Shown here piece after piece: positions 5,069-27,795 of a DNA stretch of 36,401 nt (position 1 is the first letter of the stretch; each line of letters begins with the position of its first letter). Position numbers and translations under genes: made by a program. The stretch comes from Pseudomonadota bacterium (lineage in GTDB: Bacteria > Pseudomonadota > Alphaproteobacteria > Rhodobacterales > Rhodobacteraceae): the NCBI GenBank assembly GCA_039193505.1, contig JBCCWM010000001.1, positions 1-36,401 on the forward strand, read 5' to 3'. The notes under the pieces are model-generated. The model was not told the DNA's origin, did not search any database, and was given only the letters and a program-made list of their open reading frames with translations.

Positions 5069-5455
5069 GCGAAGACGGACCCGGCGCGACCGCCTTTCTG
5101 AGAGGAGCCCTCTTCGACGGAAAGGCAAGATCGCGGCGTCGCTGAACGAGCCATCCCGTGTTCACGGGGATGGCGGCTCAGACGGGAACAGCCCGTTGCC
5201 GTAGGACTGGAACCGCCCGTCGGCGTAGGTGTCTGCGTCGGCGAACGCCTTCAAGTCTTCGGGGAAGCCTGCTGCGAAGCGAAGACGGGTCCGGCATGCG
5301 ACAGTCTCCCTAACGGGAGCCCCCCTCGACGGGGCGGCCAGATCGCAGCTTCGCTGACCGAGCCAGCCCATGTTCATCGGGACGGCGGCTCAAACTGGAA
5401 CCGCCAGTCGGCGTAGGTGTCTGCGTCGGCGAACGCCTCCAAGCCTTCGGGGAAG
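5069..5455. repeat. Imperfect tandem duplication (units 5069-5267 and 5279-5455) that includes the 3' end of the last pseudopilin gene
   Basis: By manual alignment, 5206-5267 vs 5394-5455 match at 59/62. 5069-5164 vs 5279-5376 differ by about 20 substitutions plus a 2-nt indel. The left unit carries an extra 24 nt. Confidence 0.9.
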
Positions 5456-7042: not shown

Positions 7043-9310
7043 TCAGCGCTCCCGCACGACGATCCGCGCATTGCGGAGCGTCGTGTTGGGCGGCAGGTTC
7101 CGTGCGCCCGTGGCACCGACGGCATTGCCGAAAATGAGATAGGAGAGACCAACGCTCTCGCCCCGGAATGTCAGCCGCGCGATCTCCCGGACGGCGAGGC
7201 CCGCGACCTGTGGCGTCAGCTCGATCACGGCCTGGCCGCGTGTCGCGTCGATCTGGAACGGCAGGCTCTGCGGGCTCTCGATCGCCTCGAGCGCGACGAT
7301 GTCGGGGCGGTAGCGGACGATCAACTCCCCCTGCGCCTCGGATGGGAACCCAGCAGCGGTCAGAATGACTGTCGTGGTGCCGCCTTCCTCCATCTGATAC
7401 GCCGCGCGTCCGAAGGAGAGGACAGGCTCCGCCTCAGTTGCCGGCAGGGCCTGGCTCGGTGTCGCTTCGGGGAGCGGCACGCGGCCCGCCGCCGGTGGCA
7501 CGCTGCCCGAGAGATCGAGGCGGATGGTCGGCGCCCCCTCAGTCCCTGGGCGCGCGAGAAAGTCGTTGGGATTGGTGGCGGCAACGCGCACGCCTGTGCC
7601 AGAGTAGAACTCGGCTTCCGCGACCGAGGGCAGATCACGGGTGCGCACGACGCGAGGCGTGAGGGTCAGGATGATGTCGGTGCGGGAGCCCTCACCGTCG
7701 CGGTTGCGAAAGAGCCCACCGACCGCAGGGATGCGCCCCAACCCCGGGACAGAGACCACGTTGTCGCGATCCTCGTCCTGAATGAGACCGCCGATGATCG
7801 CCGTCTCTCCGTCGTCGAGGAGCATTCGCGTCGTGACGTTGCGGGTCGTGATCGAGAACGCAGGCTCATCCGCAGTGCCAAGGTTTTGGCCGATCGCCGA
7901 GACTTCCAGCGCGAGGTCGACGGCAACGGAGGCGTTGAGCCGCACCTCGGGCGTCACAGTGAGCTGGATCCCGACATTGCGCCGATCGAACGTGGTGCGG
8001 CTTTGGCCGGTCGGGTCGATCGTCTCGGCTGAGCGGAGCGGCACCTCCTCGCCGACAAGAAACGAGGCCTCTTTGTTCGAAAGTGCTCTGATCGACGGCG
8101 AGGCGAGGGTGCGCGCATCGACATCCTGCTTGAAGAAGCGCAGCGTGACCGCGGGCAGCGAAAGTGCGGAGGCGCCGAGTGCCGACCCAGCCTCATCGAC
8201 CGGAAAGACATCGTTGAGCGTCAGCGTCGAGGGGGGGATCACGCTGATCTGGCTCCCGAAATCGAGGCCGAGCTGTTCGGACTTGGTGCGGTTGATCTCC
8301 AAAACCTCGACTTCCATCACGACCTCGGCAGGGCGGCGGTCCTGCACCGAGATCAGTTGATCGGCGAGCAGCACCCGCTCGGCCGACGCACGGACGGTCA
8401 CGGTGTTCTCGGCCTCGTCCACAGTGACATTGGCGAGCCCGAGCGTGGTCGCCAACCGCTCCCCCATTGTGAGGGCGTCACCCGATTCGATGAAGAACGT
8501 GCGGACCACATAGTCTTCGTACTCCGCCCGCTTGCCGGGCGTGTCGGGGGCGATGATGACGGAGTTCGCGCCGAAGCGGCGGTAGAACGCGCGGTTCGAG
8601 CGGAGGAGGAGCTCGAAGGCCTGCACGAACTCGACACCGTCCGCGTAGACCGAGACCTCGCGGTCCGCCAGATCGGCATCGAAGATAATGTTGACGCCAT
8701 AGGCGCGGCCAAGGGCGAGCGCCGCATCTTTGAACGCGGCGTTTTGAAAGCTCATCGTCACCGGCGCACCGGTCGTGAGGCGGATCGGCGTCAGGGTGTC
8801 CTCGGCGCGCCGGGTTGCGGCGAGGGTCTGGAGGAGGCGGATCGCGGGCACGTATTCCGGATCTTTGGAGAGTGCGGCCTCCACGAGGTCCGCCGCGCGA
8901 TCTTCGCGCCCGAGGCGCGCGGCCACACGGGCGTCGCGGAAGAGCTTGCGCGCCTGCCCCAGCTCACCCAACCGGTCGAGCTCGTCGCGCAGGATCGTGC
9001 TCTCTGGCAGGATCACCAGCGCCTGGCCGACCTCGCCACGCGCCCGCTCGATGTCGTTCGAGCGCGCCAGCCTGCGGGACCGGTCGAGATAGTGGCGCTC
9101 GGTCGCCTCGACTGCCGAATAGAACCCCTCGCGCAGGGTCGGATTGTCCGGGTCTGCGGCAAGCCCCTGGCGGTAGAAGCCGAGCGCGCCCGCGAAATCG
9201 CGCCGCTCAATCAGGTCCTGGCCCGGCTCGGCCCCGGGGCGCAATGGCTCCGCGCAGCCGCCCGCAAGCAACATCGCGGCCAAAACCGCCGCCCGTATCA
9301 CCTCACTCAC
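7043..9310 (-). CDS. gspD: Secretin (GspD-like) with lipoprotein signal, TPR-like N-terminus and probable cohesin-like C-terminal domain
   Basis: Lipobox LAGGC, then helical repeats and N-domains. The secretin core runs EVVMEVEVLEI, LDDGETAIIGGLIQ, VPGLGRIPAVGGLF, IILTLTPRVV. A Pro/Ala linker and a beta-rich tail follow. Start GTG 9310 is inferred. Confidence 0.85.
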   Translation of the reverse strand: MSEVIRAAVLAAMLLAGGCAEPLRPGAEPGQDLIERRDFAGALGFYRQGLAADPDNPTLREGFYSAVEATERHYLDRSRRLARSNDIERARGEVGQALVILPESTILRDELDRLGELGQARKLFRDARVAARLGREDRAADLVEAALSKDPEYVPAIRLLQTLAATRRAEDTLTPIRLTTGAPVTMSFQNAAFKDAALALGRAYGVNIIFDADLADREVSVYADGVEFVQAFELLLRSNRAFYRRFGANSVIIAPDTPGKRAEYEDYVVRTFFIESGDALTMGERLATTLGLANVTVDEAENTVTVRASAERVLLADQLISVQDRRPAEVVMEVEVLEINRTKSEQLGLDFGSQISVIPPSTLTLNDVFPVDEAGSALGASALSLPAVTLRFFKQDVDARTLASPSIRALSNKEASFLVGEEVPLRSAETIDPTGQSRTTFDRRNVGIQLTVTPEVRLNASVAVDLALEVSAIGQNLGTADEPAFSITTRNVTTRMLLDDGETAIIGGLIQDEDRDNVVSVPGLGRIPAVGGLFRNRDGEGSRTDIILTLTPRVVRTRDLPSVAEAEFYSGTGVRVAATNPNDFLARPGTEGAPTIRLDLSGSVPPAAGRVPLPEATPSQALPATEAEPVLSFGRAAYQMEEGGTTTVILTAAGFPSEAQGELIVRYRPDIVALEAIESPQSLPFQIDATRGQAVIELTPQVAGLAVREIARLTFRGESVGLSYLIFGNAVGATGARNLPPNTTLRNARIVVRER

Positions 9311-9827
9311 CACTGGTCCCACCGAGCCTCAGCGTGCGCCTTATCCCGAGCTCCTCGCTCTCGACCACGACCCCCTCGAGTGTGATGTCCGTCACGACGA
9401 CCCCGCGGAAAAGTGGGTCGCCGCGGACGACATTGTCAACCTCGCCGCCCGTGGTGACCAGAGCCCCGAGCCCGGCGGCCGTCGAGTAGACCCCCATCAC
9501 CCGGATCTGGTCGAGGCGTCGATCAAGGGCCGCGCGCGCGACAGCCTGTGCACTCGGCTGTCGCGGGGGTGAGGGCGGTGGCGTCGGCTCCGTCGCAGGC
9601 GCGGCCGGCTCTGGCCGCGCAAAAAGGTCGCGACCGCCGCCCGATGGAGCCGGGGCGCTGCGCGGACCCACGGTGAGATCGGGCAAGACCAGCGCGACGG
9701 GCACGCGCGGCGCCTCTTCTCCTGTCTCCTCCGCTTTGGGGGGCAAGAGGCGCTGCGCATTGAGACCGAGGAGCACCGCAACCGCGAGGCCGTAGAGCAG
9801 AAGCCGTCCTTGGGTGATCCCAAACAT
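9303..9827 (-). CDS. Membrane-anchored assembly protein in the GspC/PilP position
   Basis: N-terminal TM helix, RDLF motif, Pro-rich linker and a short beta domain; lies directly upstream of the secretin. Confidence 0.65.
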   Translation of the reverse strand: MFGITQGRLLLYGLAVAVLLGLNAQRLLPPKAEETGEEAPRVPVALVLPDLTVGPRSAPAPSGGGRDLFARPEPAAPATEPTPPPSPPRQPSAQAVARAALDRRLDQIRVMGVYSTAAGLGALVTTGGEVDNVVRGDPLFRGVVVTDITLEGVVVESEELGIRRTLRLGGTSGE

Positions 9828-9830
9828 CCC

Positions 9831-10406
9831 TCACACCGATCCGCGGGTCAGGGTCATGAACCGCATCCGAGCCCGAACCCGCGCCCCGAGGGGATCGGAC
9901 GTGATCTCGACTGACAACAGCAACGTGAGGGTGTCGAGCTCTCCCACGAGCTCCAGAAAACGCCGGATCTCGGCGTAGCGCCCCTCAACTGTGAGGTCTT
10001 GGAGGACCGGCACCACGTCGTCCTTTGGTGTGCCGAGACTGTTAGCACCGTGGACGATGCGCGTCCCCGCGGCTTGCGAGAGATCGGAGAACCGACGCAC
10101 CAGGCTCGATCGGTCTGCGCCGACCGCAAGGCGATCGTTGATGTCGCCGACAGAGGCGCTGAGCGCCGCATAGCGCTGAGCAAGGGCTCGTCGTTGCTCG
10201 AGGACGCTGCGCTCAACAGTCAAGCCGGTCAATGCCCGCTGTGCGTGGTCGGCGCGCTCCCGCGCCGGCACGAGCACACCGACCCAAGCAACGTATGCAG
10301 CAAACGCAGTCGCCATGGCGGCCAGCACACCCTGACGCACAACCGGAATGCGCCAATAGGTGATCAAAAGAGCAATCACGGGCGGCCAAACCAGATCGAC
10401 AGCCAT
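9831..10406 (-). CDS. PilO/GspM-like protein
   Basis: TM helix, coiled coil and LTVEGRYAEIRRFLELV motif. Start is ATG 10406 or GTG 10379. Confidence 0.75.
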   Translation of the reverse strand: MAVDLVWPPVIALLITYWRIPVVRQGVLAAMATAFAAYVAWVGVLVPARERADHAQRALTGLTVERSVLEQRRALAQRYAALSASVGDINDRLAVGADRSSLVRRFSDLSQAAGTRIVHGANSLGTPKDDVVPVLQDLTVEGRYAEIRRFLELVGELDTLTLLLSVEITSDPLGARVRARMRFMTLTRGSV

Positions 10407-10506
10407 CGGGCAGCACCGACGCTGCGGTGTTCGGTTGGGAGACGGCCGCGGACCGGTCGCCTCCTCGGCGCGCGGGCGCGATAGAGGGTCTCTTGGACAG
10501 GGTCCG

Positions 10507-11046
10507 TCATCGCGCGACCGCCCTGATGTCATACTGGACCAGACTGTCCTGACCGTCCTGGCGGCGCACCTGTCGCTCCAAGATCACGTCTTCGAGGGCG
10601 TCGAGGGCCTCTATGGCCGTCAGTGCGCCAGGCAACGTCGCCTCGTCGCGACTGAGGAGAGAGAGGGCCAGCGTCCCGCGCTCGACATCGTATGTCAGGC
10701 TCTGAGCCCAGACCGAGGCTGGCAGCGCTCCCTCAAGCGCGTCGAGAAGGGGGGCAAGATCCAAGTGCCGCGTGCCGGCGAGCGCGTTGAGGCGGGAGAT
10801 GTCCGCTGCGAGCTGTCTGATCTCCACCTCGGTCGGAATTGACCCGCTGGCCCTTTCGGCCGCCACAAGCGTTGGTTGGAGCGCGGCGATATGCGCCTCC
10901 GCTTTCTCCGCCCGCCCGGTTTGACGATGCGCCTCGGCAAGGCTCAGCGCCGTGACGGCGCCACCTCCGACAGCGATCGCCCACACACAGGCGGCCACCC
11001 ATCCGGGCCAACGGCGGGAGGGCGCCACGAAACTGCTCTCCGCCAT
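10507..11046 (-). CDS. PilN-like protein
   Basis: TM helix, coiled coil and LLDALEGALPASVWAQSLTY motif. Strong GGGAGG RBS. Confidence 0.75.
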   Translation of the reverse strand: MAESSFVAPSRRWPGWVAACVWAIAVGGGAVTALSLAEAHRQTGRAEKAEAHIAALQPTLVAAERASGSIPTEVEIRQLAADISRLNALAGTRHLDLAPLLDALEGALPASVWAQSLTYDVERGTLALSLLSRDEATLPGALTAIEALDALEDVILERQVRRQDGQDSLVQYDIRAVAR

Positions 11047-11175
11047 GCTCCCTCCCCTGCTCAGCACCCATTCATGCCCAACACTGGGACCGGTTCAAGG
11101 GGCTGCCCCGCGCAAACGGCGGCCCAGTCCATCGGTCCGTCGGCCACGCGCGTGGCGGAGGCCCCGGTCGGGTGG

Positions 11176-11967
11176 TCATCTCGGCGCCAGAGAGAGCGCG
11201 ATGCTGTTCGGATCATCGGGCGACCGGATCTCCGGCTCCGGCAGATCGGACAGCGTATTGCACACAGAGCGGGCGAGCGGCGCTGTGGCGACAAGCGTGA
11301 TCGGGGCGGGCGTGGTGTTGTCCTTGAGGTGCACGGAGCGGACAACCCGGCCGATCCGCCGGGCCGCTTCGCTCTCGTCGGCACCCCAGTCCGAGAACGT
11401 CCGCATCGCGCCTCCGACGTGGGTGCGCACCGACCACCAGCCATCGGGGCACGCGATCACCATGCCCTCTGCGGGCGCGTAGCGCGCCAGGGTCTCGAGG
11501 CGGTGCAGGCGAAACCCGGCCTCCCGCGCGGCGCTCTGGATTGCGGCCACGCGGGCCGCGCTCAAGACCCGGACGAGGAGGTCGGTGCCGGTCTCGGAGG
11601 TCTCCAGACGCTCGACTGTGCAGACGACGCGCTCCGGAGCGCTTCGATGCTCCCGCGCGATGCGAAACCGCACAAGGTCGTCCAGCGCACGGGGCGTCTC
11701 GGGCACATCGGCGAAACTCAACACATCCTCGAGGGCCACGGGGTCGGGCAGCGCGACGGCCGTCCGGACATCCGCCCTGAGCGCCTCGGCCCCGAGACCG
11801 CGCGCCAACGCGGCGAAGGTCGAGCGGAGATCGGTGCCGTCCTCCTGCCAGATCGCCTCGGGCAACCTCGCCGACGCGGATCGGAGGGCACCGCGGCGGC
11901 CGCGGAGCACGGCATGCGCCCTGCGGTGGCCGAAGTAGATGCCGACGGAGCGTCGCGACAGGATCAT
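11176..11967 (-). CDS. PilM/GspL-like cytoplasmic assembly protein
   Basis: ATGA-coupled to the gspE stop. Contains VGIYFG, VALPDPV and AAREAGFRLHRLE. Position between gspE and pilN supports the call. Confidence 0.65.
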   Translation of the reverse strand: MILSRRSVGIYFGHRRAHAVLRGRRGALRSASARLPEAIWQEDGTDLRSTFAALARGLGAEALRADVRTAVALPDPVALEDVLSFADVPETPRALDDLVRFRIAREHRSAPERVVCTVERLETSETGTDLLVRVLSAARVAAIQSAAREAGFRLHRLETLARYAPAEGMVIACPDGWWSVRTHVGGAMRTFSDWGADESEAARRIGRVVRSVHLKDNTTPAPITLVATAPLARSVCNTLSDLPEPEIRSPDDPNSIALSLAPR

Positions 11968-13523
11968 GAGGCGGCAAACGTGACGCGGTCGACTTCGGCG
12001 AGGCTGGATCGCCCTGCCCACGCCTCCGCCAGAGCGGCGTCGCGCAACGGCACCATGCCGCCCGCAAGGGCCGCCTCACGGAGGCGGGCTGCCGGCGCGC
12101 GGGCGATCATCAGGTCCTGGACGTCCGGCGTGATGGCAAGATGCTCCACAATCGCGCGCCGGCCGAGATAGCCGCTCCCAAAGCAGCGGGAACACCCCAC
12201 CGCGGCCCGCCAGAGCGGCGGATCAGCCGGAAGGGCCACTGTGTTGCCGAGCGGACCGGTGGGGGCCGGGGCAGAGGTCGCACAGTCGGGGCAGAGCTGG
12301 CGGATCAGGCGTTGGGCAAACACACCCCGCAGCGCCGCGACCACATCATGGAGATCGATCCCCCAATGTGCAAACCGGCTCACCACATCAAAGGCCGAGT
12401 TCGCATGGACAGAGGCCAGGACCAGGTGACCGGTCAGCGCGGCCTGAACGGCGATCGTGGCGGTCTCGAGATCCCGGATCTCTCCGACCATGATCCGGTC
12501 GGGGTCGTGGCGCAGGATGGCGCGCAGACCGCTCGCGAAAGTCATGCCGGTCTTCTCATTGACTGCGATCTGGACGACGCCCTCGAGCTCATACTCGATC
12601 GGATCCTCAATCGTGATGACCTTCTCGGCCCCCGTCGCAAGCTCTGAGATCGCCCCATAAAGCGTCGTTGTCTTGCCGGAGCCCGTGGGCCCGGTCATCA
12701 GGACAAGACCGTGAGGCTCTCGCGCGCTTTGCCGGAGCGCCGAGAGGATGCCCGGGGCGAGGCCCAAATCGTCGAGCCGCATGCGCTGACCGAGGCGGGA
12801 GAGGTGGGATTTGTCTAGGATCCGGATCACGACGTCCTCACCCCATTGCGTCGGCAGGACAGAGACGCGGAAATCGACATCGCGCCCTTCGATCCGAAGG
12901 CGGAACCGACCGTCCTGCGGCACACGCCGCTCTGCGATGTCGAGATCGGCCATCACTTTGATGCGGCTGACGAGGGCGCTGTGATGGCTTGCGTCGATTG
13001 GGTCGGTGGCGGGATAGAGCACTCCGTCGACGCGATATTTAAGCTCGACGCGGTCGGCCCCGACCTCGATGTGAACATCCGAGGCCTGCCTCTGAAGGGC
13101 GGCCATGAGGATTGAATTCGCGAGCTGCACCATGCCCGACTGATCGGCAAGGCTCTCGAGATCGATGACGTCCTCCCTGCCGCCGGCCTCGCGCACAAGC
13201 TCCGGCTTGAAGCCCGCAGAGACACGGTCAAGGACCCGGCGCGACGTCTCGACCCGGCTCAGTTCGGCCGCAATCGCCTCTGGTTCAGCGACGGCAAGGG
13301 CGATCCGCCGCCCGGTGATCGAGGCCAGCCGGCGCTCAAGCGTGAGGTCGAGCGGGTCGGACACGGCGACGGTCAATGTGTCGCCCGAGGTCGTCAGCGG
13401 CAGGATCGCAAGACGGCTCGCCGTCTCGACAGGCAGCAGCTCAAAGAGGGCCGCATCGGCCGTCACCTCCGCGTGGTAGGGCAGATCGAGCGTTCGGGCC
13501 AATGCTGCGCGGTCCGTGGTCAT
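11964..13523 (-). CDS. gspE: GspE/PulE-family secretion ATPase
   Basis: ASDVHIE, DIAERRVPQDGR, Walker A GPTGSGKTT, LRHDPDRIMVGEIRD, TGHLV and CPDC..CSRC. Confidence 0.93.
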   Translation of the reverse strand: MTTDRAALARTLDLPYHAEVTADAALFELLPVETASRLAILPLTTSGDTLTVAVSDPLDLTLERRLASITGRRIALAVAEPEAIAAELSRVETSRRVLDRVSAGFKPELVREAGGREDVIDLESLADQSGMVQLANSILMAALQRQASDVHIEVGADRVELKYRVDGVLYPATDPIDASHHSALVSRIKVMADLDIAERRVPQDGRFRLRIEGRDVDFRVSVLPTQWGEDVVIRILDKSHLSRLGQRMRLDDLGLAPGILSALRQSAREPHGLVLMTGPTGSGKTTTLYGAISELATGAEKVITIEDPIEYELEGVVQIAVNEKTGMTFASGLRAILRHDPDRIMVGEIRDLETATIAVQAALTGHLVLASVHANSAFDVVSRFAHWGIDLHDVVAALRGVFAQRLIRQLCPDCATSAPAPTGPLGNTVALPADPPLWRAAVGCSRCFGSGYLGRRAIVEHLAITPDVQDLMIARAPAARLREAALAGGMVPLRDAALAEAWAGRSSLAEVDRVTFAAS

Positions 13524-13539
13524 CCTCTGCGTCTCCCGC

Positions 13540-14742
13540 TCATTGCACGACGCCCGAGATGCCGAAGATCGGCAGATAGACGGTCACGATCACGGTCCCG
13601 AGCACAACACCCACGAGGAGGATCATCACCGGCTCGATCAGCGCGAGGACGCGATCGATCCGGTCTTCTGCTGCCCTCTCGTGGATCGCGCCCACCGCGT
13701 CGAGGAGGGAGGGGAGCGCTCCGGCCAGCTCCCCCGCACGGATCATCCCGAGGGTTGTCGGCGGAAGGAGCGCCGTGCCGGCGAGCGCCTCGGCAAGCGC
13801 GCGGCCCTGGCCGATTTCCTGTGCCACGTGCGACAAGCGATCTCGGATCACGGTGTTTGCCATCGCCTCGGCCACAAACTCGAGCGCGGGCCGCAGCGGG
13901 GCGCCGGCGCGAAGGAGCATCGCAAGCATCGCCGCCATCTGTTGGAGCGCCGTGTCCCGGATGATGCGGCCGAGAACAGGGCTCCGGAGCGCTGCACGGT
14001 CGCGGAGCCGCCGCGGCCCGGGCCGCCGCATCGCCGCGCGCCAGAGCGCCGCCAGCGCCAACATCCCTCCCGCACTCGCCGGGATCCAGAAAGGTGCCGT
14101 CTCGACGAGCGCCATCAGAACTTGTGTCGGTGCGGGCAGGTCGGCTCCGAACTCGCCGTAGAGATCGGCAAAGCGGGGCAGGACAAACAGCATCAGCCCC
14201 GCCAACACAACGGCGAGGAGGCCGAGAAGGAAGGTCGGGTAGACCATGGCACGGCGGATCTTGCGCTCGATCTCGGCCCGGCGGGCCAGAAAGGCCTCAA
14301 GCTGCTCCAGAGCATCGGCAAGGCGGCTCGTGCGGTGCCCCGCGCGAAAGGTCGCGCGCGTCAGCTCGTCGAAGACGTCCGCTCTCTCCGCCGCCGCCTC
14401 ATCGAGGGCCAGACCACGCGCCACACCCTGCTCAAGCGAGGCGATCGCCGCGCCGAGACCCGGATCCTCCGGGTGCGCCTTCAAGAGCGACAGCGCCTTC
14501 GCGACCGGCAGGCCGGCCGCAGTCAGATGGCGAAACTCGCTCAAGAACCCGAGAAACGCCTGTTGCGACACGGCGCCGCGACGGAGCCGCGGCAAACCGC
14601 GCCCCCGAAGCGCGCGCGCCTCAACAAGGAGCAAACCCTGCGCCGCCAGATCCCGCCCCAATGCGCGGCGGTCAGGTGCGTCCTCCTGCCCCTCAACCAG
14701 ATCGCCGCTCGGGCGCCGCGCGGTGTAGCGAAACGCCGTCAT
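13540..14742 (-). CDS. gspF: GspF/PilC-family inner-membrane platform protein
   Basis: MTAFRYTA start with GGAGG RBS, two T2SSF repeats, AMVYP..VLPRFADLY and LIEPVMIL..VYLPIF. Confidence 0.92.
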   Translation of the reverse strand: MTAFRYTARRPSGDLVEGQEDAPDRRALGRDLAAQGLLLVEARALRGRGLPRLRRGAVSQQAFLGFLSEFRHLTAAGLPVAKALSLLKAHPEDPGLGAAIASLEQGVARGLALDEAAAERADVFDELTRATFRAGHRTSRLADALEQLEAFLARRAEIERKIRRAMVYPTFLLGLLAVVLAGLMLFVLPRFADLYGEFGADLPAPTQVLMALVETAPFWIPASAGGMLALAALWRAAMRRPGPRRLRDRAALRSPVLGRIIRDTALQQMAAMLAMLLRAGAPLRPALEFVAEAMANTVIRDRLSHVAQEIGQGRALAEALAGTALLPPTTLGMIRAGELAGALPSLLDAVGAIHERAAEDRIDRVLALIEPVMILLVGVVLGTVIVTVYLPIFGISGVVQ

Positions 14743-14806
14743 TTCACGTGGCCTCCGGCCAAACGCACACTGCCACGCCACCTCCCGCGCTAAAGCGACC
14801 AACGCC

Positions 14807-14836
14807 ATTACGGTCCAGCCGCGCACATGCCGTCAA
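14807..14836 (-). promoter_or_regulatory. Possible sigma-70 promoter of the secretion operon
   Basis: TTGACG-N18-CGTAAT, 65-95 nt upstream of gspF. The -10 match is weak. Confidence 0.25.
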
Positions 14837-14941: not shown

Positions 14942-15754
14942 TCACCCCTCTGAGCGCAGCGTCGGATCCAGCCGGTCCCGCAACCAGTCCCCGGTCAGGC
15001 TGATCGAAAGCGCCAGGCAGAAGATCATCGCGCCCGGAAACAATGTCAGCCACCAGGCGGTCAGCAACCTGTCCCGGCCCTCCGACATGATCTGCCCGAG
15101 TGAGGTCAGCGGGGGTTGAACGCCAAGCCCAAGAAAAGACAGTGCCGTCTCGAGGAGCACTGTCAGCGGCAGGTTCACTGTGAACTGCACCAGAGCCACG
15201 TTGAGGATATTGGGCGCCACATGGACGAGGTAAATCCTCCAGGGCGATGCCCCGAGCGCCCGCACGGCCGTCACATACCCCATCTCCTTGGCCTGGAGCG
15301 TCGCGCCCCGCATAAGGCGCGCATAGACCTCCCACCCGGTGAGCCCGATCAGAAGGAGGAAAAGCGTGAAGGAGTTGTCGAACATCGCCAGCACGAAGAG
15401 CGCCACCACGATGATCGGCAAAGATGCCTGGACATCGATTGCCGCGACAATCACGGCCTCCGTCACGCCGCGCCGCGCCGCCGCGATAATCCCAAGAAGC
15501 GATCCGAGGAGCGCACCGATCAAAGTGCCGACAACCGCCACGATGAGCGTGATCTTCGCCCCGACAGCCAGCCGCACCAAAAGATCCCGCCCACGCGCGT
15601 CGGTGCCGAGAAGATAACCTTCCGAAAGCGGCGCCTCGAGCCGGTTCAAGAGGGAGGTCTGGCGGTACTCATAGGGAGAGACGAGCTCGCCCAAAAGCGC
15701 GAAGAGGACAAAAGCCGCGATGAACGCGAGCGAAAGACGGACTGCCCAGGGCAC
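14942..15754 (-). CDS. Peptide ABC transporter permease (DppC/OppC-like)
   Basis: LLGTDARGRDL, EAA-loop YVTAVRALGAS and LSFLGLGVQPP. Confidence 0.92.
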   Translation of the reverse strand: MPWAVRLSLAFIAAFVLFALLGELVSPYEYRQTSLLNRLEAPLSEGYLLGTDARGRDLLVRLAVGAKITLIVAVVGTLIGALLGSLLGIIAAARRGVTEAVIVAAIDVQASLPIIVVALFVLAMFDNSFTLFLLLIGLTGWEVYARLMRGATLQAKEMGYVTAVRALGASPWRIYLVHVAPNILNVALVQFTVNLPLTVLLETALSFLGLGVQPPLTSLGQIMSEGRDRLLTAWWLTLFPGAMIFCLALSISLTGDWLRDRLDPTLRSEG

Positions 15755-16662
15755 TAGCGCGCTCTGATCCGCGGATCGATCACCAGATACAGGAGATCGA
15801 CCGCCAGATTGGCGAGAACCATCGTCGCAGCGACGGCCAGGACGATGAACTGCACAGTCGCAATGTCCCGCGTGGCGACGGAGCGTACCAGGAGCTGGCC
15901 CACACCGGGCCAGGCAAAGACTTGCTCCGTCACAACCGATCCCGCGATGAGCGCGCCGAGAGACAGGCCAATCAGAGTGACGAGCGGGATGGCCGCATTC
16001 GGCGCCGCATGCGTCAAGAGCCGGCGCACATAGGGGACGCCGCGCGCCTCGGCAGCGCGCATGAAGGGCGCGTTCAGCGTCTCGAGAAGGGACGAGCGCG
16101 CGAACCGCGCAAAACTCCCCATTGCGGCGAGACCGAGAGTGAGCGCCGGAAAAATCACTGCCGCCTCCGCACCGCCGAGAAAGGCCTGGAACACGAGGGC
16201 TGCGGTCAGAATGAGACCGAGACCGAAGAGAAAATTGGGCATGGCGAAGGCAAAGACCGAGAAGGCCATCACGGCGCGGTCAAGCGTCCGACCGCGGTTG
16301 AGGGCCGCGAGCGCGCCGAGCGGCAGCCCGAAGGCCAGTGCGATCAGGAGTGCTGTTCCACCGAGGTGGAGCGTCGCGGGAAGGCGCTCGAGAAACAGCG
16401 TCAAGGCGGGTTTGCCGGTGTGGATCGAATAGCCGAACTCACCTGCAAGAAGGCCTGCGATATAGCTCGTATACTGACGCCAAAGCGGCTGATCGAGGCC
16501 CATCAGCCGTGCATATTGATCAATCACCTCCTGCGGCGCATCCGGCGGGGCGAGCGCAGCCGCTGGGTCGCCAGAGAACCGAATGAAGATGAACACAAGC
16601 GTGACCGTGATCAAAAGAGTGATCACAGCCCGCGAGAGGCGGGACATGACATACCCCGTCAA
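15754..16662 (-). CDS. Peptide ABC transporter permease (DppB/OppB-like)
   Basis: GDPA, GLDQPLWRQY, ERLPATL and TEQVFAWPGVG. TTG start at 16662 after a GGGAGG RBS. Confidence 0.92.
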   Translation of the reverse strand: MTGYVMSRLSRAVITLLITVTLVFIFIRFSGDPAAALAPPDAPQEVIDQYARLMGLDQPLWRQYTSYIAGLLAGEFGYSIHTGKPALTLFLERLPATLHLGGTALLIALAFGLPLGALAALNRGRTLDRAVMAFSVFAFAMPNFLFGLGLILTAALVFQAFLGGAEAAVIFPALTLGLAAMGSFARFARSSLLETLNAPFMRAAEARGVPYVRRLLTHAAPNAAIPLVTLIGLSLGALIAGSVVTEQVFAWPGVGQLLVRSVATRDIATVQFIVLAVAATMVLANLAVDLLYLVIDPRIRAR

Positions 16663-16729
16663 GGTGCCGACCCTCCCAAAAGCGGGCGACGTTGCGACGG
16701 CGGCGCACAGGTGCACCCGCCCGAGTGGA

Positions 16730-16811
16730 GCGCCAAGGCGTCGGTTCGGGCAGGCCCGAACCCGCGCGCTCGCGCGCGGCCTCTGCGGGTCGCAGAGGCG
16801 ACGCCGTCCCC
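16730..16811. repeat. 82-nt four-way-junction (cloverleaf) repeat, copy 1
   Basis: GGCGTCG[GTTCGGGC-AG-GCCCGAAC][CCGCGCGC-TC-GCGCGCGG][CCTCTGCG-GGT-CGCAGAGG]CGACGCC; 74/82 identical to 25706-25787. Confidence 0.95.
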
Positions 16812-16822
16812 AGCCACACGCC

Positions 16823-18460
16823 TCACGCCGATGCCTCCCGAGCCTCTCCGGTGCTTTCCGTTGCAGCACGCGGCACTGCCGCGAGGAGGGCTCTTGTGTA
16901 GCGGTGTCGCGGGGCATCGAACACTTGCGCAGTCGGTCCAGCCTCGACCACACGGCCAGACTGCATCACCATGACCCGATCGGCGACTGCGCGAGCCACG
17001 CGCAAATCGTGGGTGATAAAGAAAAGCGCGAACCCGAACCGCGTTTGAAGATCTCGGAAGAGGTCCAGTATCTGGGCCTGCACGGCCACATCAAGCGCAG
17101 AGACCGCCTCATCGGCAATCAGAACCTCGGGGTTCAGCGCCAAAGCGCGTGCGATGCAGATCCTCTGGCGCTGACCGCCAGAGAATTCCTGCGGCAGACG
17201 TTCGGCCGACTGAGGCGAGAGCCCGGTCAAGGCCAGCAGTTCGGCCGCGCACGTGCGCGCCGCAGCGCGCGGCGTACCATGGATGATCGGTCCCTCTGCG
17301 ATGGCATCCCCGATCCGTTGGCGCGGATTGAGGGCCGACCATGGGTCCTGGAGGACGACCTGCACGCGGCGGCGCAGGGTCCGGAGCGCCTTTCCTTGGA
17401 GCGCCGTAATGTCGCGCCCGGCGAAATGGACGCGCCCGGCATCCGCCGGTTCGAGGCGGAGAAGGAGGCGGGCAAGCGAGGACTTTCCCGATCCGGATTC
17501 GCCGACGACCGCCAGGGTCTCTCCGGCGTTGAGCGTAAGCGAAACGTCATCCACGGCCCGGACGATGCGGCGGCGCCAGGGGGCGCCGGACCGATAGACC
17601 AGAGAGACGCGGGTGGCCTCCATGAGCGGCACGTCCGGCGTGTCTGTCGGCTGGCGCGCGGGCAGCATCGTGGCGGCGAGAAGCGCGCGTGTCTCCGGTG
17701 CTGCAGGCGCACGCAAGACGCGCGCCGCTGGTCCCGTTTCGACGAGCCGGCCGTCTTGCATCACCGCGATCCGATCTGCAATCTTGGCCACCACGCCAAT
17801 GTCATGGGTGATGAAGAGGACAGCGCTCCCCCGCTCCCGCTGCAGCGTGGTGAGAAGGCTCAGGATCTCTGCCTGCGTTGTAACGTCGAGCGCAGTCGTC
17901 GGCTCATCGGCGACGAGGAGCTCGGGCTCGAGGAGAAGTGCGCCCGCGATCACGACGCGCTGGCCCTGTCCGCCTGAGAGTTGGTGCGGGAAGGCGTGGA
18001 AGATGCGCTCAGGATCGGGCAGGCGCACGGCGCCGAGCATCTCGATCACGCGGGCCCGGCGTCCGCCTCGTGGAACGCCATGCACTGCGAGGATCTCTTC
18101 GAGCTGCCGTCCAACCCGCATCACCGGGTCGAGACTGGCGATCGCATCCTGAAAGATCATCGCGATCCGGGCCGAGCGGATCTTGCCCCAGCCTGGATCG
18201 CGCTGTGCCGGCAGAGCCGCCCCGTCAAACGAGAGACTGCCGCCCGTCAGGCGGAGCGCGCGGGGCAGCATGCCGAGGATGGCCTGCGCCACGACCGACT
18301 TGCCCGATCCGCTCTGCCCCACAAGGCAGAGCGTCTCTCCACGCGCAATCTCGAGCGAGACGCCCTCGACCGCCGCAGGTCGGTCGCCGCCCTCAGGGAG
18401 GGCGACCGTCAGATCCTGAACGGACAGAAGGGGCGCGGGAGGCGCCCCATCCGCCGTCAT
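16823..18460 (-). CDS. Peptide ABC transporter ATP-binding protein with two fused ATPase domains
   Basis: Two Walker A motifs ([16 protein letters not shown]) and two signatures (LSGGQ, FSGGQ). Confidence 0.95.
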   Translation of the reverse strand: MTADGAPPAPLLSVQDLTVALPEGGDRPAAVEGVSLEIARGETLCLVGQSGSGKSVVAQAILGMLPRALRLTGGSLSFDGAALPAQRDPGWGKIRSARIAMIFQDAIASLDPVMRVGRQLEEILAVHGVPRGGRRARVIEMLGAVRLPDPERIFHAFPHQLSGGQGQRVVIAGALLLEPELLVADEPTTALDVTTQAEILSLLTTLQRERGSAVLFITHDIGVVAKIADRIAVMQDGRLVETGPAARVLRAPAAPETRALLAATMLPARQPTDTPDVPLMEATRVSLVYRSGAPWRRRIVRAVDDVSLTLNAGETLAVVGESGSGKSSLARLLLRLEPADAGRVHFAGRDITALQGKALRTLRRRVQVVLQDPWSALNPRQRIGDAIAEGPIIHGTPRAAARTCAAELLALTGLSPQSAERLPQEFSGGQRQRICIARALALNPEVLIADEAVSALDVAVQAQILDLFRDLQTRFGFALFFITHDLRVARAVADRVMVMQSGRVVEAGPTAQVFDAPRHRYTRALLAAVPRAATESTGEAREASA

Positions 18461-24798: not shown

Positions 24799-25647
24799 TC
24801 AGGGCGACAGCGTCGGGGCGAGGGCGGCCAGCGCGCTGGCCAAGGCGTCCGCGGCAGCGGTGAGCCCAAAGATCCCTTCGGTTTTGGCCAGGGTCCGTTC
24901 CTCCATGTAGAGCGCGCGGTTGAGCTCGATCTGTATGGAATGGCGGTGCTCCGCCGGACGGCCGTGTCGACGCACGATCTCGAAGCCCTTGTAGGGATCG
25001 TTGAGCGCGACCGAATACCCGAGGCCGCGGAAGGTGTCGATGACGCAGTCCCGCATTGATTGAGCGCAGGAGGTGCCATCCCGGTCGCCGACAACAACAT
25101 CGGGGCGCCGAACCGGGCCGTCCTCGGTCGTTCTGTCTCCGCGGCTGCTCATGGAATGTGCGTTGACATGGAGAACGAGCCCATGGTCCGAGTGCGCGGC
25201 CTCGAGGGCACCTGCCAGAGCGTCCTGATAGGGCTGCCAACATGTGTCGAGGCGATGGCGCAGCTCCGCAGGGGAGATCAATCGGTCGTAGACCGGCCCA
25301 GCGTCGCGCATCGCCCGCCAGAGAAGGCCGACTTTGCGCGACAGCGTCTTCGATGTCGGATTGACCGGCCCGTCCCAAGGGCCCGACAACATCGATACAT
25401 CGATGTCGTCTGAGGCCCTGTTGGGGTCGATGTATGCGCGCGGAAAAAGGGCATGGACGAGTGTGACACCGTGCTGCGCGGCTGGGGCAAAGATCTCCTC
25501 GAGATGGGCGTCTTCCGAGCGTCGCAACACCAGTCGATCAATCGAATGTCCAAAATCTGCGGGGTAGATTGAGCCCGAATGAGGGCTGTCGAAGACAAGC
25601 GGTGTGCTTCCTGCGGTCGGCCGCTCGATCCGAACCCAGGGGCTCAT
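24799..25647 (-). CDS. N-formylglutamate amidohydrolase family protein
   Basis: LVFDSPHSG, FPRAYIDPNR, HSM, GDRDGTSC, NDPYKG and IQIELNRALYM. Confidence 0.9.
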   Translation of the reverse strand: MSPWVRIERPTAGSTPLVFDSPHSGSIYPADFGHSIDRLVLRRSEDAHLEEIFAPAAQHGVTLVHALFPRAYIDPNRASDDIDVSMLSGPWDGPVNPTSKTLSRKVGLLWRAMRDAGPVYDRLISPAELRHRLDTCWQPYQDALAGALEAAHSDHGLVLHVNAHSMSSRGDRTTEDGPVRRPDVVVGDRDGTSCAQSMRDCVIDTFRGLGYSVALNDPYKGFEIVRRHGRPAEHRHSIQIELNRALYMEERTLAKTEGIFGLTAAADALASALAALAPTLSP

Positions 25648-25705: not shown

Positions 25706-25787
25706 GCGCCAAGGCGTCGGTTCGGGCGCGCCCGAACCCGCGCGCGGGCGCGCGGCCTCTGCGATCCGCAGAGGCGACGCCGCCCCC
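25706..25787. repeat. 82-nt four-way-junction (cloverleaf) repeat, copy 2
   Basis: All four stems are identical to 16730-16811. The loops are GC, GG and ATC instead of AG, TC and GGT. Confidence 0.95.
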
Positions 25788-25840: not shown

Positions 25841-26833
25841 TCATGCGTCGCGCCAGTGATGGCAGGCCACAGTCCGACCGTCAGGCGTGATCTCGAGGGG
25901 CGGGCGTTCCTGCTGACACAATTCCGAAGCGCGTGGACAGCGTGGGTGAAAGTGGCAGCCCGACGGCGGAGCGAGGGGCGAGGGTATCTCACCCTTGATC
26001 GGCTCGAACGCGCGCTTCCGGTGGTCGAGGCGCGGCGCCTCGGCAAGAAGCGCGCGTGTGTACGGGTGGCGCGGCGCGGCAAAGAGCGCGTCCGTCGGCG
26101 CGGTCTCAACGATCCGTCCGAGATACATGATCGCCACCCGGTCTGCGACGTGTTCGACCACCGAGAGGTCGTGACTGATGAAGAGGTATGTCAGATCCAG
26201 CATTTCGCGCAGGTCCATGAAGAGGTTCAGGACCTGCGCCTGGATCGACACGTCGAGCGCTGCGATGGCCTCGTCGCAGACGAGAAACCGCGGTCGCACC
26301 GCAAGGGCCCGGGCGATCCCGATCCGCTGCCGCTGACCGCCTGAGAACTGGTGCGGGTAGCGGCGCCGGAGGCTGGGGTCGAGGCCCACCCGCCGCATCG
26401 TCTCAGCCACATACTCCCCGACATCGCCATCGATCAGGCCGTGCGCACGGGGCGCCTCGCCGATGATGTCCTCAACCCGCATTCGGGGATTGAGGCTCGC
26501 GAACGGGTCCTGGAAGATCATCTGCACCGCAAGTGTCGCCGCCCGTCGCGCCTTGCCCGAAAGCGCGGCCACATCGGCGCCGTCGAGGACGATCTGACCG
26601 TCGCTTGGGGCGTGAACGCCGGCGACAACGCGTCCGAGGGTCGACTTTCCGCACCCGGATTCGCCAACAAGGCCCAGCACTTCGCCTGTCGCAACGCTGA
26701 GACTGACGCCATCGACCGCGTGCACGGTCTCTTCGCGCACATTGGCGCCGAGCCGCGCCGCGAGCTTACCCGCAAAGTCGAGGCGCCTGGTGAAGCGCTT
26801 TGAGACGTCGCGGATCTCAAGGAGGTCGTTCAC
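25841..26833 (-). CDS. Peptide ABC transporter ATP-binding protein (DppF/OppF-like)
   Basis: GESGCGKS, FSGGQRQR and C-terminal GCHFHPRC..VACH. GTGA overlap with the upstream gene. Confidence 0.95.
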   Translation of the reverse strand: MNDLLEIRDVSKRFTRRLDFAGKLAARLGANVREETVHAVDGVSLSVATGEVLGLVGESGCGKSTLGRVVAGVHAPSDGQIVLDGADVAALSGKARRAATLAVQMIFQDPFASLNPRMRVEDIIGEAPRAHGLIDGDVGEYVAETMRRVGLDPSLRRRYPHQFSGGQRQRIGIARALAVRPRFLVCDEAIAALDVSIQAQVLNLFMDLREMLDLTYLFISHDLSVVEHVADRVAIMYLGRIVETAPTDALFAAPRHPYTRALLAEAPRLDHRKRAFEPIKGEIPSPLAPPSGCHFHPRCPRASELCQQERPPLEITPDGRTVACHHWRDA

Positions 26834-27795
26834 ACCCGAACCTCCAGGAGTGGGTTGTGGCACCGAATCCGTCGCGCCATCGCCTCAACCACATCCGGCG
26901 CCCGCTCGCAGGCGGTTGTGGCATGGCCACAGCGGGCCTTGAAGGCGCAGCCCTGGGGCAGGGCCGCCAGGTTCGGTGTCATTCCCGGGATCTGGCGGAG
27001 GCGCTGGCCGCGCTTGTTGGCGGACGGAACCGAGCCGAGGAGGCCCGCCGTATAGGGGTGCTGCGGGCGATCGATCACGTCATCGACCGTGCCCTGCTCG
27101 ACAATGCGGCCCGCATACATCACTGAGATCCGATCGGCGAGGCCCGCCACCACGGCGAGATCGTGGGTGATCCAGATGAGCGCCGTGCCGGAGCCACGGC
27201 AGAGCTTTTGCGCTTCATGTATGATCTGCGCCTGGATCGTGACGTCGAGCGCGGTCGTCGGCTCGTCTGCGATGATGAGATCGGGCTGGTTGAGGAAGGC
27301 GATCGCAATCGCCACCCGCTGGCGCATGCCGCCGGAAAGCTGATGGGGATAGGCGTGGAGCCGCTCCTCCGGCGAGGGGATCCCGACAAGGCCGAGCGCG
27401 TCGCGCGCTTGGATCCGCGCGGCCGCCTTGTCGGTTGTTCCGTGCGCCTCAAGCGCCTCGATCATTTGTGTGTCGATCCGCAGCACAGGGTTCAGCGTCA
27501 TCATCGGGTCTTGGAAGATCATCGCGATCCGGTTGCCGCGGAGATGGCGGAGCCGCTCCTCCGGCGCGCCCACGAGCTCCTCGCCCTTGAAGGCGATCGA
27601 GCCCTCCACGACTTGGCCCGGCGGGTCGATGAGGCCGATGATCGAGAAGCCGGTGATCGACTTGCCCGACCCGCTCTCCCCCACGAGCCCCATGATCTCG
27701 CCGGGTCCAACGCTGAAATCGACGCCGTCGACGGCCTTCACGGTGCCGGCACGGGTCAGAAAGTGGGTCTTTAGTCCCCGAACCTCGAGTGTCAT
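26830..27795 (-). CDS. Peptide ABC transporter ATP-binding protein (DppD/OppD-like)
   Basis: [24 protein letters not shown] and GCAFKARC. Confidence 0.95.

Follow-up and report, generated by a model that had tools for sequence, protein, structure and literature searches.

The described systems closest to the element reported here are the GTAG/CGTC-tagged REPs and the REP dimers (BIMEs), with their RAYT transposases. As characterized in the available portion of PMC3733652, these repeats are likewise short, palindromic, lineage-restricted and intergenic, and they lie 3' of genes and are rare between divergent genes. Some tagged REPs are found in frame in repair genes, and the CGTC families are also without a known transposase (PMC3733652, same portion). 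Rickettsia palindromic elements (RPE) similarly represent in-frame palindromic insertions into protein genes, repair genes included (PMC3733652, in part). Finally, MITEs (Correia/NEMIS, ERIC, RUP and YPAL) and the CIR repeats of Caulobacter share with our element a size class of 70-130 bp, a short terminal inverted repeat and a stable fold; CIR is ~110 bp long and consists of two arms with a linker and bears a GANTC motif (PMC2229807, as excerpted).

The window, i.e., the whole stretch of 36,401 nucleotides of DNA that was analysed, contains two copies of an element predicted to fold into a four-way junction. The core of copy 1 spans 69 nt (16737-16805, strand-neutral) and that of copy 2 lies at 25713-25781 (strand-neutral); both belong to a family that we call A and both positions were confirmed. 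In copy 1, a 7-bp closing stem, with its 5' arm at 16737-16743 (+) and its 3' arm at 16799-16805 (+), surrounds three strand-neutral hairpins of 8 bp: hairpin 1 (16744-16761) is an inverted repeat with a 2-nt spacer at 16752-16753, hairpin 2 (16762-16779) has a 2-nt spacer at 16770-16771 and hairpin 3 (16780-16798) has a 3-nt loop at 16788-16790. The core is flanked by asymmetric sequences, the left one ending in CAA (16730-16736, +) and the right one consisting of G followed by a C-rich stretch (16806-16811, +). The original prediction described the three hairpins as abutting, with zero unpaired bases at the junction, only Watson-Crick pairs and either strand able to fold, and this was confirmed by DNA and RNA fold predictions. 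The two DNA strands of copy 1 fold at -33.7 and -33.1 kcal/mol (z -4.0 to -5.4), a value equaled by 0 of 200 shuffled sequences, and either strand also yields the four-way fold as RNA (-54 kcal/mol). The energy model leaves the innermost pair open in hairpins 1 and 2, resulting in 7 bp and 4-nt loops. The two copies had been thought to differ by seven loop bases only: their stems are indeed identical and the seven loop differences are present, but comparison over 82 nt reveals an eighth difference, at flank base 16807.

Each copy is located within a minus-strand ABC-transporter operon, 3' of an ATPase gene. Copy 1 lies between an ABC transporter ATPase gene upstream (16823-18460, -) and an ABC permease gene downstream (15754-16716, -; start taken from the codon model). 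Copy 2 lies between an oligopeptide ABC ATPase gene upstream (25841-26863, -) and an N-formylglutamate amidohydrolase gene downstream (24799-25647, -; start set by comparison with the related genome G002). Elsewhere in the window, local direct repeats at 5086-5455 (120 nt at 78% and 62 nt at 95%) are suggestive of a gene segment that has been duplicated or disrupted, and a cluster resembling type II secretion or type IV pilus systems (secretin, T2SS E, F and M) is found at 7043-14826 beside peptide ABC transporters.

As had been anticipated, the element did not match tRNA, REP or CIR, and the window presented no Rfam match at all (best E-value of 0.5 around copy 1). REPs are single hairpins of 20-40 bp, alone or as spaced dimers, with an unpaired GTAG or CGTC tag (PMC3733652, in the portion available), whereas our element measures 68-79 nt and combines three hairpins with a closing stem. 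Within 8 nt outside the stem, GTAG was found in 0 of 26 copies and CGTC in one of 26. When CGTC occurs in the element it is always paired, within the stem of some family-A copies, unlike the REP tag. The element further differs from REP-RAYT systems by the lack of a RAYT here and by its strong conservation in place. Tandem 'cuckoo' RNAs, a class with a characteristic loop motif, were also considered and rejected, the motif being found in 0 of 26 copies. Unlike RPE, in-frame copies were found in ruvA only and retained perfect pairing across two genera. Unlike MITEs and CIR, the element presents no TA ends, target duplication or GANTC motif (0 of 26), and it adopts a four-way fold rather than a rod or two-arm fold. 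Its terminal inverted repeats are 6-8 bp long as opposed to 15-30 bp for MITEs (PMC3733652, in part), and resemble those of ERIC and RUP, of 7-9 bp (PMC2229807, in part). Within the literature covered, most subscription journals lying outside it, neither this architecture as a repeat class nor a junction encoded in ruvA was found.

The genome holding the window (G000) comprises 4.64 Mb in 617 contigs with a GC content of 65.8%. A sequence-blind scan of this genome identified 19 perfect four-way junctions with arms of at least 6 bp, when each of four genomes simulated with an order-5 Markov model contained none; three-way and five-way junctions were at chance level. Copy number had been proposed as a check, and the total reached 26 elements, 25 of them clear from a relaxed scan and one from a pattern search. 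These are distributed into family A (n=8, the window pair included), family B (n=14) and four singletons. Every copy has a closing stem of 6-8 bp around exactly three abutting hairpins, and the tip of hairpin 1 (GGGC/GCCC) is common to families A and B. All 26 elements are intergenic, including C140:8984. Their flanks are asymmetric, with CAA on one side and G plus a C-rich sequence (GCCC) on the other; with sides assigned by A content, the left flank has A at -1 in 25 of 26 copies and at -2 in 23 of 26. Conservation in place of CAA is not clear (4 of 51 orthologous positions differ), and the interior of family B is found in both orientations relative to the flanks. An outer stem with a CAA bulge was considered, and covariation in it was not clear (the lowest p in five attempts being 0.025). 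The sequencing runs listed as containing the window DNA are marine and include no RNA run, and the presence of puhA and bch genes among the neighbours of the element indicates a phototrophic host within the Rhodobacteraceae. In genome G130 (C5, L315:19028-19100), a short-chain dehydrogenase ORF of apparently normal length contains another perfect four-way junction (6+9+9+7 bp), whose sequence is unrelated; this junction is either due to chance or a further member of the class.

Conservation of the element was evaluated between G000 and its sister genome G001 at 17 of the 26 sites, those for which the G001 locus was in hand. Stems differ at only 5 of 1058 positions, relative to 547 of 3082 positions in intergenic flanks, 469 of 2209 third codon positions and 66 of 185 loop positions, although these orthologue counts may be affected by the mixing of strains in the G001 assembly, which holds two versions of one locus (L012 and L015, 87% and 99% identical to G000). 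Stem divergence is thus 35-fold below that of flanks and loop divergence is twice as high (36% and 18% for loops and flanks, respectively). No two-sided stem change was detected at these 17 sites. Beyond them, the orthologues of C164, only ~4% apart, present one two-sided stem change and the orthologue of C16 presents two single-sided breaks. Single-sided stem breaks in the G001 orthologues of C39, C28, C124:6881 and C16 represent decaying copies. A strain with ~12% divergence (runs X2 and X3) spans copy 1 from both sides and, among the differences listed for the copy 1 core, all are in loops or adjacent to one.

Covariation was also extensive across copies. Indeed, 10 of 28 pairs have changed on both sides in family A (99.6% of cells paired) and 18 of 31 in family B (98.6% paired); in the alignment limited to hairpins 1 and 2, pairing reached 100%, and two-sided changes affect 9 of 16 pairs. 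At the bchH-bchL site of G002, the sequence is different and still fully paired. The proposal of invariant stems therefore applies to the window pair, while stems do change across the family, but on both sides at once. In contrast, the proposal that selection acts on the fold was supported by the covariation of both families and by stem changes being far rarer than loop changes. Judging from these comparisons, the element is kept in place by strong purifying selection acting on the fold. The four-way element is real, strongly selected and outside any described family.

A link to recombination was found at ruvA. In G002 and G004, the part of ruvA that encodes the linker of domains II and III contains a perfect family-B junction, in frame. 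A second genus, represented by three genomes (G130, G171 and G172), has such an in-frame linker junction in each of them. In these five copies, 161 of 161 pairs are Watson-Crick and none is G-U, despite diverged peptides, and synonymous recoding of the linker peptides produced the junction in only 2 of 15000 trials. The linker is 49-54 aa long in carriers of the in-frame junction vs 27 aa in G000 and G001, i.e., 22-27 residues shorter, and the latter two genomes possess a family-B copy just 3' of the ruvA stop codon, ahead of ruvB, in the same orientation as the in-frame copy. Judging from the RuvA/RuvB tree, the ancestor of the genus likely had the junction in frame; G003 would have lost it, and in G000 and G001 it would have been relocated. 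Among the 93 ruvA loci examined (outside the genus, 29 best matches, 40 hand-picked from 117 matches and 19 more), seven carry the junction and 86 do not, including that of G003 in the same genus. The two junction-bearing genera are not recovered as one clade in the RuvA/RuvB tree, which has open forks. A protein search with the RuvA linker returned no match but itself, and ruvA was the only gene found with an in-frame copy of families A or B.

With a family-B model (150 candidates scored per genome), the ruvA copy was the sole match in G004, G130 and G171, the dispersed copy number in G171 and G004 resting on these model searches. The model detected dispersed copies besides the ruvA copy in G001, G002 and G172, and no matches in G003, G120 and G021. 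The single dispersed copy of G172 and one copy of G002 resemble the ruvA copy of their own lineage. Families A and B may plausibly be related, but the kinship is weak. Family-A elements reach 19-42 bits with the family-B model, whichever strand is scored and mainly through their shape, and the similarity of the arms is significant for the window type (p 0.01) and not for six other family-A copies. Among singletons, C164 (bchX-bchY) is similar to family B in its arms (p <0.0005). The copies in and behind ruvA lend indirect support to the element as a candidate site for junction-binding proteins.

Other copies are also adjacent to genes of DNA metabolism. Family A is found between addB and addA in G001 and, in G002, between dnaN and recF, 3' of gyrB and 3' of a uracil-DNA glycosylase gene, while one family-B copy adjoins rnhA. 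Homologous-recombination genes are touched by 3 of 47 sites compared to ~0.33 expected (p 0.005, post hoc), an expectation based on what we take to be 15 such genes. Ordinary metabolic or transport genes make up most of the neighbours. Several additional features were observed at individual sites. The photosynthesis cluster (G000:C30 and C164; L056 and L060) contains three junctions, at bchN-bchB, bchH-bchL and, by Pfam, likely bchX-bchY. One family-B copy (G000:C87, L071:2588-2665) is flanked by rsmI and a UPF0102 (YraN) gene, whose product we presume to be a possible resolvase-like nuclease. A highly conserved intergenic stretch with a terminator (G000:C124, L059:4900-5350) is located upstream of the family-B copy C124:6881 and resembles either a small RNA or a short gene missed by gene calling. 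Finally, a family-A element of G002 (C102, L138:727-910) is split in two halves ~100 bp apart beside a uracil-DNA glycosylase gene, reflecting either an insertion or a misassembly.

Family A is narrowly distributed, as it was found only in G000, G001 and G002, which cluster together in a quick RuvA/RuvB tree (support 84). A search of GTDB with a family-A pattern returned 17 loci. Ten of them fold as junctions and are all located on contigs of the two genus relatives; the other seven do not fold in this way. A family-A model yielded no matches across 150 genomes of the bacterial family (28 candidates scored per genome), and a broader model applied to 11 genomes matched G001 and G002 only. The family-B pattern was found at 4 loci in metagenomes and at none in viral contigs, and plasmids gave a single partial match of 36 bp. 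A structure scan of 400 kb per genome, which has low power, detected no junction in G003 and G004 and one in G130. As the original prediction had proposed to compare filled and empty sites, orthologous sites were inspected and empty ones were found in G002, G003 or G004, several of which consist of overlapping ATGA/GTGA stop-start codons. For instance, copy 2 is present at the orthologous site of G001 and absent from G002, where the flanking genes overlap at ATGA.

These lineage-restricted gains at many sites are consistent with a REP- or RPE-like mobile repeat that is non-autonomous and is mobilized in single-stranded form by some enzyme, the ruvA copy being an old in-frame insertion into a tolerant linker. 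This possibility, which we consider rather unlikely, would also be in line with the asymmetric CAA/GCCC flanks and with the dispersed copies of G172 and G002 that resemble the ruvA copy of their own lineage. Moreover, the CAA side tends to lie on the C-rich, lagging-type strand. Codon skew places it there in 22 of 29 units (p 0.008; 14 of 19 G000 contigs and 8 of 10 private copies in relatives, with C312 reassigned and contigs C30 and C124, where element orientation is mixed, excluded), and synteny with G004, a complete genome, does so in 11 of 14 (p 0.06; not counting three ambiguous cases), a bias that is only suggestive since strand calls are noisy on short contigs. A replication-strand bias is likewise displayed by IS200, IS91 and IS110 in Proteobacteria (PMC3971601, in the portion available). 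Conservation speaks against the mobile repeat, as inert insertions should decay in place and copies of the element do not. The HUH- or IS110-type partner envisaged for it was not recovered either: the Y1 transposase (PF01797) was found in none of the five genus genomes (assemblies 77-99% complete; controls positive in 6 of 14), the sole Y2 HUH match is in a genome without the element, and a GIY-YIG search returned only a UvrC-sized protein. IS110 is present in three of the five genus genomes (G003 included; absent from G002 and G004), which does not fit the distribution of the element, and 10 IS110 loci showed no junction and no linkage, their similarity to the element being at chance level among the matches listed. 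Exact ends of the inserts are unreadable because 10-130 bp of diverged flank lie on each side. Abutting target duplications of 2-5 bp were found in 0 of 26 copies, and a long duplication apparent by eye at two sites was rejected after a scan at the null level. No empty allele was detected among the sequencing runs examined.

The element could also act as RNA. In operon transcripts, a very stable fold of four helices would then stop 3' exonucleases, direct cleavage or, in the RuvA linker, cause ribosomes to pause, and its orientation would be indifferent since both strands fold alike. Its placement is compatible with such a role: all 43 classifiable copies (25 in G000 with two neighbours and 18 in relatives) are 3' of a gene and none lies between divergent genes, compared to 406 of 1173 comparable background spacers (35%), and several separate transporter subunits or bch genes. 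The energy of the RNA fold points in the same direction, and tagged REPs with the same placement have been interpreted as RNA elements (PMC3733652, in part). We nevertheless judge this explanation unlikely. G-U pairs represent only 7 of 1623 pairs (0.4%) in the elements relative to 503 of 5054 (10%) in stable 3' control folds, a count biased by the part of the element set that came from a Watson-Crick scan; they are absent from the coding ruvA copies, where one strand alone is RNA. Copy 1 has no terminator-like U tract, and the flank motif is independent of the direction of transcription, with CAA lying sense in 9 copies and antisense in 11. The near-absence of G-U pairs and the random orientation relative to transcription suggest a function as DNA or on both strands. 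Finally, neutral persistence, in which folded stems are shielded from single-strand damage and corrected by arm-to-arm template switching while loops mutate faster, could account for the rapid loop divergence and the two-sided change at C164, but it appears very improbable, as symmetric correction predicts many two-sided changes where the 17 sites have none with stems 35-fold below flanks, and as it leaves exactly three hairpins and the tie to ruvA unexplained.

We tentatively favour the reading in which the elements imitate Holliday junctions as DNA and are bound by RuvA, the ruvA copy being ancestral and the others having dispersed later, even though it falls somewhat short of probable. Autoregulation by target mimicry is known from ribosomal-protein leaders and from the tRNA-like operator of thrS, where a fold within the gene resembles the substrate of the encoded product. 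These are RNA mimics located in leaders, whereas our element appears DNA-like, is found in a coding linker or 3' of a stop codon and is a putative mimic. RuvA binds junctions with high affinity and independently of sequence, and RuvC protects 5-10 bp of each junction arm (PMC10956419, in the portion available). The predicted fold has the pairing expected of a RuvA substrate, with four fully paired arms and no unpaired base at the branch point. Under the RuvA-mimic reading, the oldest traceable copy would be the in-frame one of ruvA, in the flexible stretch joining domains II and III. The junction would extrude while DNA is transiently single-stranded or underwound, during replication or transcription, and RuvA settling on it may damp or pause transcription into ruvB, i.e., feedback by mimicry. 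In the sub-lineage of G002, G001 and G000, junctions would then have spread to dozens of transcribed gene junctions, both window copies included, where they may have been co-opted as RuvA-dependent pause or loading sites. The bias toward one replication strand suggests that new copies originate through a single-strand, replication-linked step. It is possible, though doubtful, that the ruvA linker DNA thus encodes a mimic of the junction bound by its product, establishing RuvAB feedback, and that its dispersed copies serve as programmable sites on which RuvA lands, forming a class of regulatory DNA defined by structure.

This RuvA-mimic reading is favoured by the exactly four arms, the conservation in place, the covariation and the DNA-like pairing, as well as by the junction in ruvA, the proximity of family A to recombination genes and the consistent exclusion of the classifiable copies from divergent spacers. 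It is weakened by the 86 of 93 ruvA loci without the junction, the two junction-bearing genera not being recovered as one clade, the weak kinship of families A and B, the ordinary neighbours and the decaying copies. Arms of 7-10 bp that are GC-rich also make extrusion from duplex DNA energetically hard, which counts against a mimic. So does the preference of tagged REPs for repair genes and flexible protein regions, with no known link to RuvA in the available portion of PMC3733652, whose supplementary list of intragenic REPs, as available, includes no ruv gene. The mimic and the mobile repeat are compatible and can both hold, with spread by one process and retention through RuvA binding.

Genome-encoded four-way junctions under 35-fold purifying selection are without a described function. 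The conserved copy in ruvA makes an otherwise anonymous repeat testable, by asking whether a recombination protein may control itself, or other operons, by means of a substrate mimic. The same copy gives a starting point for a long-standing question, the accumulation of palindromic repeats in genes of DNA repair.
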